NCBI GenBank assembly: GCA_965203485.1
Contig: OZ241892.1
Coordinates: forward strand, 416,001-480,000
Reading direction: 5' to 3'
Source: Longimicrobiales bacterium
Lineage (GTDB): Bacteria; Gemmatimonadota; Gemmatimonadetes; Longimicrobiales; Gaopeijiaceae
Length of the DNA stretch: 64,000 bases
Shown in pieces: positions 44,044 through 44,217 of the stretch. Position numbers and translations under genes: made by a program. How positions within the stretch are numbered: the first letter of the stretch is position 1; each line of letters starts with the position of its first letter. Below the pieces are notes generated by a model. The model was not told the origin of the DNA and did no database searches. It was given only the letters and a program-made list of their open reading frames with translations.

Positions 44044-44217
44044 ATGCTGGTACTGATGGCGGCCGTTATCTTGACCGCCGTGGTCGGCGGGGAGCAGGAT
44101 GCGGCGGCGGCTGGATGCCGGAAGATCGGTTCCTACTGTGACACCGGCTGGCAGTGTTGCAGCAGGAACTGCGAGGACGGTGGCGACGAAAGGGCAGTAT
44201 GCCTGCCGGAGTCCTGA
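44044..44217 (+). CDS. Secreted conotoxin-like/knottin-framework peptide (57 aa)
   Basis: GGAGGAG RBS; hydrophobic leader ending AAAA; core GCRKIGSYCDTGWQCCSRNCEDGGDERAVCLPES (C-X6-C-X5-CC-X3-C-X9-C). Confidence 0.82.
   Translation: MLVLMAAVILTAVVGGEQDAAAAGCRKIGSYCDTGWQCCSRNCEDGGDERAVCLPES

Follow-up and report, generated by a model that had tools for sequence, protein, structure and literature searches.

Small peptides in which six cysteines form a C-C-CC-C-C framework are known from animals, plants and fungi. The cystine knots considered here (PDB entries 6px7, 1c6w, 1dkc, 6ena and 1ie6, of which we take 1c6w to be maurocalcin, 1dkc an antifungal peptide, 6ena nemertide alpha-1 and 1ie6 imperatoxin A) have about 30–35 residues, are made with a signal peptide and carry variable loops on fixed cysteines. 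Conotoxins (Pfam PF02950, PF17557 for I2 and PF08087 for O) have a similar framework, and their precursors consist of a signal peptide and a propeptide with a basic cleavage site. Baculovirus conotoxin-like peptides combine a signal peptide with six cysteines. The viral conotoxin-like family has been traced to dsDNA viruses, one fungus and one sea anemone, and not to bacteria (PMC2935411).

Bacterial sialidase, an enzyme with a six-bladed propeller fold, enters this comparison through the knottins of sponges. Asteropsins, asteropine A and stryphnines have the knottin connectivity and come from sponges; asteropsins are anionic and their origin is stated to be unknown, while stryphnines are encoded by the host and inhibit bacterial sialidase (PMC13418204). 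A 2025 preprint on a Histoplasma knottin found no knottins in the bacterial proteomes among the 48 proteomes that it scanned; it describes this result as consistent with a literature lacking reports of prokaryotic knottins, and its suggestion is that knottins can fold only with the help of something eukaryotic, for example the endoplasmic reticulum (10.1101/2025.05.13.653811). Our own literature search, with subscription journals mostly outside its scope, turned up neither a description of bacterial knottins as a family nor one of a peptide/DsbA/propeller cassette, and the pairing of Gemmatimonadota with knottin returned 0 papers.

Similar cysteine motifs do occur in other bacterial proteins, in myxobacteria for instance. 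Bacteria also produce disulfide-bonded bacteriocins: the sublancin locus encodes a dedicated thiol-disulfide oxidoreductase (BdbA/BdbB) and an immunity gene.

The real and apparently undescribed peptide family that we report here resembles the cystine knots of animals, plants and fungi in framework, size, signal peptide and variable loops, but it is bacterial, mostly acidic, and encoded beside a DsbA-like oxidase and a propeller. With the baculovirus peptides it has in common a signal peptide combined with six cysteines. With bacteriocin loci of the sublancin type it shares a small exported disulfide peptide, a linked oxidase (in 6 of 9 loci) and partner genes that outlive the peptide and resemble orphan immunity genes, whereas it differs from them by its Sec-type leader, its acidic core and its NHL propeller partner.

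The peptide gene and its leader

The window is the whole stretch of DNA that was analysed, 64,000 nucleotides of a sponge-associated Longimicrobiales bacterium (contig OZ241892.1, positions 416,001 to 480,000). In window coordinates, the peptide gene comprises the following features.

44029..44034, + strand: ribosome-binding site GGAGGA, 9 nt 5' of the ATG
44044-44217, + strand: six-cysteine peptide ORF, 57 aa including a leader ending in AAAA
44044..44112, + strand: Sec-type signal peptide ending in A-A-A-A (cleavage site inferred from sequence)
44113..44217, + strand: mature six-cysteine core with knottin-type spacing (34 aa, net charge -2), then stop

The sequence-only reading of this DNA had pointed to a strong ribosome-binding site, a hydrophobic leader ending in AAAA and a six-cysteine core, and all of these are confirmed; the core, as translated, is spaced C-x6-C-x5-CC-x3-C-x9-C. 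By this spacing, it is a knottin-type framework in a real bacterial peptide. The strict pattern C-x6-C-x5-CC-x3-C matches only this peptide in the six frames of the 3.56-Mb genome, and the strict six-cysteine pattern occurs 0 times in each of 5 block-shuffled genomes. A looser CC pattern arises by chance: it has 20 matches in the genome, but only the window peptide carries a leader.

Public sequence collections already contain the predicted protein, in a cluster of four. The other three members have 61 residues and a basic n-region at their start; the window allele is without four n-region residues and, unlike its three siblings, has no basic n-region; its core is identical to those of P0003 and P0004. 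The short leader looks like a real allele, because the contigs of runs X1 (possibly the source) and X5 (depth 2) show 0 differences from the window over the leader, which makes an assembly error at the N-terminus unlikely; for runs X6 and X7, the contigs covering the same stretch contain 13 gap letters. Nine rows from 5 studies carry at least half of the sampled words (3 are labelled as sponge metagenomes and 1 as a marine metagenome), and no RNA dataset is among the listed holders.

Since the basic start of the signal peptide is missing, export of the window allele may be impaired or poor. It may even be that the family is real but that the window copy is a decaying allele, whose precursor is no longer efficiently exported. 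Most relatives, and not only the three siblings, have a basic n-region, an insertion sequence remnant lies upstream of the gene, and broken copies of the peptide gene are known (the G174 copy and the second G266 copy). However, the loss is in frame, the hydrophobic stretch, the ribosome-binding site and the core are intact, the core is the same as in P0003 and P0004, and the allele is also found in the contigs of two studies. We find decay rather doubtful, though far from negligible, and this estimate is independent of those given below for the other readings.

Genomic surroundings

Upstream of the peptide gene, the window contains the following features.

39061..39264, + strand: exported four-cysteine peptide with a different framework, neighbour of the cassette
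39381-40406, 40811-41863 and 41860-42876: three tandem propeller-like genes after the 39061 peptide (the label is weak, DUF5128 E 0.24 for one of the three)
42899..43705, - strand: broken IS1634-family transposase remnant, directly upstream of the cassette (NCBIfam NF033559, E 6.4e-09, 35 bits against a cut-off of 100)
43823..43975, + strand: non-coding element, probably a promoter region (matches its copy at 38891-39042 over 99 nt at 90% and 56 nt at 75%)

The non-coding element, of 100–150 bp, holds a GCAAC/ACAAC repeat about 21 bp apart. A second copy (38891-39042) precedes the Cys-rich peptide gene at 39061, and a third one (G000 14200-14305) lies about 4.6 kb upstream of another peptide/DsbA cassette. 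No sigma-70 consensus promoter or terminator was found on the coding strand, and the shared element is not evident, by eye, upstream of 7 relatives. Contig depth is raised, with indels, over 42.7-43.9 kb.

Several other observations concern this region. Between 40404 and 40709 lies an apparent fusion remnant, with a lipoprotein-like start running out of frame into a four-cysteine peptide tail; the X6 and X7 strains carry 671 extra bases at 40522. A block at 46394-49629 contains an ECF sigma factor, a membrane protein, a second sigma-like gene, a thioredoxin-like/lipoprotein ORF (47082-47654) and an eight-cysteine CC-CC-CC-C-C peptide (47647-47844), and relatives of this block adjoin the knottin-type cassette in G070, G266 and G174. 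Two serine-hydrolase genes (beta-lactamase fold, DUF3471; 36776-38803 and 49640-51500) are about 80% alike and 13 kb apart, the second being frameshifted and broken.

The genome encodes at least 14 exported Cys-rich peptides of differing frameworks; 14 is a lower bound because the peptide at window position 47647 escaped the filter. Of these 14, 10 are followed within 3 kb by a gene for a propeller or a DsbA (one of 15 candidates had been dropped for lack of a signal peptide), compared to 2.0% of random positions. Exported four-to-eight-cysteine peptides of unrelated frameworks are found at G000 131769, 139257, 1474274, 2027459, 2420704, 2423601 and other positions, and most of them adjoin propeller or DsbA-like genes. 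In other genera, four- or six-cysteine exported peptides lie beside close DsbA homologues (L003, L005, L006, L009, L010 of family f2, and L018).

Family and conservation

The window peptide belongs to a Gemmatimonadota family without a name, made of exported precursors of 57-79 aa with the spacing C-x6-C-x5(7)-CC-x3-C-x8-11-C. The search of a library of 1.84 billion representatives with a single sequence, the sibling P0003, gave 16 matches, 9 of which are new small precursors of 60-79 aa, and profile searches brought 8 further members. The named members MCY4398203.1 and MCY3942594.1 are Gemmatimonadota hypothetical proteins, and one other member is from Longimicrobiaceae. The longer matches P0015-P0017 and P0020 consist of SpaA prealbumin-like repeats and are not knottins, P0019 has the same look by eye, and P0024, a cysteine-repeat protein that matches Conotoxin_I2, was also excluded.

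In a scan at the level of the order, 19 of 401 genomes match at E<=0.01 and 10 of these are real, including the window genome; in a phylum sample, 9 of 401 genomes match and 7 are real. The family is patchy, being present in 7 of the 53 genomes of the main genus, and the window DNA was not found in the 2 other genomes of its own genus. The unpublished genomes G037 and G056 support none of the claims made here. Ten weak loci (L040-L048 and L050) and the weak matches in G579 and G043 were dropped because they contain no intact peptide, and the L097 pattern match is antisense to another gene. When metagenomes were scanned with the peptide alone, none of the 599 pattern matches proved to be a relative, and the peptide matches no NCBIfam family. 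A second Atlas look-up returned three unnamed Acidobacteriota-rich clusters (0.81-0.82), which are leads only.

The idea of a cystine framework would have had little substance if the cysteines varied between homologues. As a matter of fact, all six cysteines and one serine are invariant in the 28 of 28 aligned rows, while the loops vary. The outlier P0044, whose last loops are x5 and x3, was excluded from this alignment, in which the cores are 33-52% identical apart from the 3 siblings. Acidic cores predominate (17 of 20), the others being neutral in 2 cases and basic in 1. The spacer before the first cysteine ranges from 0 to about 14 residues in relatives, and two members have an extra CxC...CxC pair inside the last loops, which is the pattern of four-disulfide spider knottins.

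In the genome G479, from another taxonomic family, a DUF5128-like propeller gene is surrounded by three lipoprotein-like ORFs whose cysteine frameworks are knottin-type (L108:4301-6963). One of them has an identical cysteine spacing, with a weak likeness to P0003 (33% over 24 residues). By their sequences, these lipoprotein-like relatives look like a tethered form of the family.

The DsbA-propeller partner

The gene that follows the peptide gene encodes a fusion protein.

44348-46099, + strand: next gene, DsbA-like and propeller fusion (Pfam)
44348..44980, + strand: N-terminal hydrophobic anchor and DsbA-like thioredoxin domain (PF13462 residues 55-211, PF01323)
45053..46099, + strand: NHL/DUF5128-type six-bladed propeller fused to the DsbA-like domain (DUF5128 24.6 bits, cut-off 22.9)
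45587-45610, + strand: predicted peptide-binding loop 414-421 of the propeller (complex prediction)

The DsbA-like domain that the first reading had seen in this gene is confirmed (Thioredoxin_4 E 2.4e-18, DSBA E 1e-11), with the motif C74-E-Y-C77 at 44567-44578 and a T-P motif downstream. That reading had not mentioned the fused propeller, which has two conserved cysteines, C414 and C486.

In all 9 loci whose context is usable, the peptide gene lies directly upstream of a propeller gene, whether or not there is a DsbA-like gene; a tenth locus, in G114, is cut off by the end of its contig. Six of the 9 loci have an adjacent DsbA-like gene (fused in 3, before the propeller in 2 and after it in 1), and the CxxC and TP motifs are present in all 6 genes. 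In the other 3 loci (G070, G266 and G174), none was found in the 13.5-15 kb that were fetched. Of the proposal that the peptide comes with its own folding catalyst, the linkage to a DsbA-like gene is supported in two thirds of the loci; the constant partner is the propeller. It is important to note that these amount to about 7 independent loci, since G070 is nearly identical to G135, and G266 to G174. The loci contain no visible modifying enzyme or transporter.

A reverse search with the propeller over 314 genomes was used for a tree of 33 propellers, whose rows come from the 30 loci returned and 4 more fetched regions and not from all 99 listed matches. The peptide-linked propellers form a clade of 16 rows (support 100/100), in which the peptide gene is upstream in 9 and not in 7. 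No such peptide was found beside the 17 propellers outside the clade, in the DNA covered, which is mostly 1.5 kb on each side. With the peptide in 9 of 16 clade members and 0 of 17 outside, the link runs one way.

Remnants of the cassette are found in 3 of the 7 peptide-less clade propellers, and none could be traced in the other 4; the propeller may therefore have a job of its own. In G264, two tandem propeller genes (L103:5560-8015) begin with the leader of a peptide precursor: that of the first one scores 87 to P0029 (reached by 0 of 300 shuffles), and the second matches by eye. Our reading is that a deletion put the leader of the peptide onto a propeller, which would then have been duplicated. 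One G068 propeller retains a C-terminal remnant of the DsbA domain.

A predicted complex between the peptide and the propeller

When the core and the propeller domain are submitted as alignments, the complex score is 0.61 (runs at 0.61, 0.63 and 0.56), and the best of 3 controls gives 0.00; of 157 solved complexes, 116 attain the pass mark, as do 2 of 215 mismatched pairs, a calibration that is only roughly valid for our own alignments. At least 90% of contacts are common to the runs, and the pLDDT of the peptide is 81-83 beside the propeller compared to 61 beside an unrelated protein. The peptide is therefore predicted to bind the fused propeller. Close cousins of a true partner likewise pass this test (10 of 12 colicin pairs).

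In the model, peptide residues 19-22, 10-13 and 28 sit on propeller loop 414-421, and the predicted interface has 8 basic and 2 acidic residues. Among 7 independent propellers, the interface columns are 23% identical, compared to 37% elsewhere. The two-cysteine loop of this interface is also found in the 17 propellers outside the clade. The PDB relatives of the propeller are NHL domains, nearly all aligned over the first ~130 positions, and none of those listed is named as a knottin complex, which makes it less likely that the prediction merely reproduces a known structure.

Is the peptide knotted?

The family profile has 15 matches in the PDB at E<=10, all of which we take to be small cysteine-rich cystine-knot (knottin) peptides. 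The best one is 6px7 (E 0.0012) and the second has E 0.028, so that just 1 of the 15 is below 0.01, and such matches are driven by the cysteines. There is no defensin among the 15, and the sponge knottins are absent from them by name. The Atlas neighbours of the peptide are animal venom peptides (0.76-0.83, leads only).

Structure prediction, which had been suggested as a check, gave two models. The single-sequence AlphaFold2 model (pLDDT 74.6, pTM 0.40) has no Foldseek match at E<=0.001 and matches no knottin; all 8 of its VIA rows (Z 2.1-2.7) are defensins or an anemone toxin, and its TM score against 1sh1 is 0.69 at E 8.5. The alignment-based model is worse (pLDDT 55.6) and matched nothing. 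Fold searches that return no knottin do not exclude one.

The first reading also presented the peptide as conotoxin-like, and this membership finds no support. The Pfam conotoxin score is 12.9 bits against a cut-off of 27, and weak matches are found in 7 of 20 members for PF02950 (best E 0.069) and in 5 of 20 for PF17557 (best E 0.0028). There is no propeptide with a basic processing site, the first cysteine coming directly after the A-A-A-A-G junction. With its sub-threshold Pfam score and a family of mostly acidic cores, the window peptide, to judge from sequence, is not a conotoxin. In sum, the PDB matches of the profile are all knottin-like but weak, and the Pfam score is below its cut-off.

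What stands of the claim of a bacterial knottin is therefore the real peptide and its knottin-type framework; the knotted connectivity is less well served by models that have low confidence or are weakly defensin-like. It may be that the cassette is as described and that the peptide is unknotted, with a defensin-like or another three-disulfide fold, the likeness to conotoxins being one of spacing only. The better AlphaFold2 model, which resembles defensins and an anemone toxin (Z<=2.7), would agree with this, and so would the wealth of exported Cys-rich peptides of many frameworks in the genome, one of which may resemble a known spacing by mimicry. Sponges also have six-cysteine peptides that are connected differently (PMC13418204). 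Against this, the spacing is fixed across the family and the profile matches are knottin-like, with 0 defensins. Moreover, in the complex model, residues 10-13 and 18-29 are on the same propeller strand and residues 1-3 and 14-17 are unlisted; these contacts fit a II-V pairing better than a I-V pairing, although the argument is indirect and the unlisted residues are uncertain. We consider an unknotted fold unlikely, and we expect from the cysteine spacing that the I-IV, II-V, III-VI knot, whose third disulfide threads the ring, is probably the right one.

Proposed mechanism and alternatives

We propose a two-part extracytoplasmic system, in which a knottin-type ligand and its cognate propeller act between bacteria, a reading to which we give an even chance. 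Sec would export the precursor, and cleavage after A-A-A would release the 34-residue core, with no propeptide. The membrane-anchored DsbA-like domain, to judge from its CxxC and TP motifs and from the linkage, would oxidise the six cysteines, the pairing suggested by the spacing being most likely I-IV, II-V, III-VI. The folded acidic peptide is then predicted to dock on the arginine-rich, variable face of the propeller, which would be a receptor or a neutraliser of such peptides, including those of neighbours. The pair would act in competition or signalling among sponge bacteria; within this ligand-propeller reading, competition with immunity seems slightly better than a coin toss and signalling slightly worse.

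We see the propeller as a receptor or immunity protein mainly because propellers survive the loss of the peptide and, in one case, were duplicated after it. Orphan immunity genes are known to outlive their toxin partners.

The sequence-only reading had thought of a host ion channel or protease as the target. The present results do not support this, the constant and predicted binding partner being the propeller. A host-directed knottin can still be envisaged: the DsbA-propeller protein would be a platform for folding and hand-over, and the target a channel, a protease or a glycosidase of the sponge or of a predator. The fusion of the two domains in 3 of the 9 loci suits a folding platform, the nearest look-alikes in the Atlas are the venom peptides mentioned above, and sponge metagenomes are among the holders of the sequence. 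In addition, there are sponge knottins that are anionic and without toxicity, and bacterial sialidase is inhibited by some sponge knottins (PMC13418204). However, the propellers persist and duplicate after the loss of the peptide and, in G264 and G068, also after that of the DsbA-like gene, which is unlike a pure chaperone. The acidity of 17 of the 20 cores also speaks against a host-directed role, as do the patchiness of the family (7 of 53 genomes in the main genus) and the three lipoprotein-like, hence tethered, relatives in G479. Most channel-blocking knottins are cationic. We hold a host-directed role to be improbable.

The peptide could also belong to the propeller as a subunit with a structural or regulatory task, at the surface or in the periplasm of the producer and with no outside target, for instance a small disulfide-rich lid that tunes a sensor or an adhesin. 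This would account for the confident predicted complex, for the lipoprotein-like forms next to the propeller in G479 and for the ECF sigma genes found close to the cassette, both in the window and in 4 of the 8 remaining loci. What argues against it is that variation is greater in the loops of the core and on the predicted binding face than elsewhere, which suggests a changing specificity, and that the peptide was lost repeatedly. A self-subunit therefore has little of our credence.

Last, an artefact or a host contamination is rejected, because the gene is in a one-contig bacterial genome of 3.56 Mb, flanked by bacterial genes, and its named relatives are Gemmatimonadota proteins.

Implications

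There is, in our estimation, about as much to be said for as against the view that these peptides are the first natural bacterial inhibitor cystine knots, folded in the periplasm by a dedicated DsbA-like enzyme and recognised by a co-diversifying six-bladed propeller as receptor or immunity protein. If it is true, knottins can do without an endoplasmic reticulum. The claim of such a requirement becomes directly testable with a bacterial peptide of 34 residues that has an oxidase of its own. Should the knot be real, nature may have provided, in the DsbA-propeller fusion, a system for folding a scaffold that is valued in peptide engineering. The peptide-propeller pair also offers the first concrete way into a cassette that is found again and again in the Gemmatimonadota without an assigned function; should the proposed reading be true, these bacteria would have a repertoire of disulfide scaffolds comparable to a venom, together with matching binding proteins.
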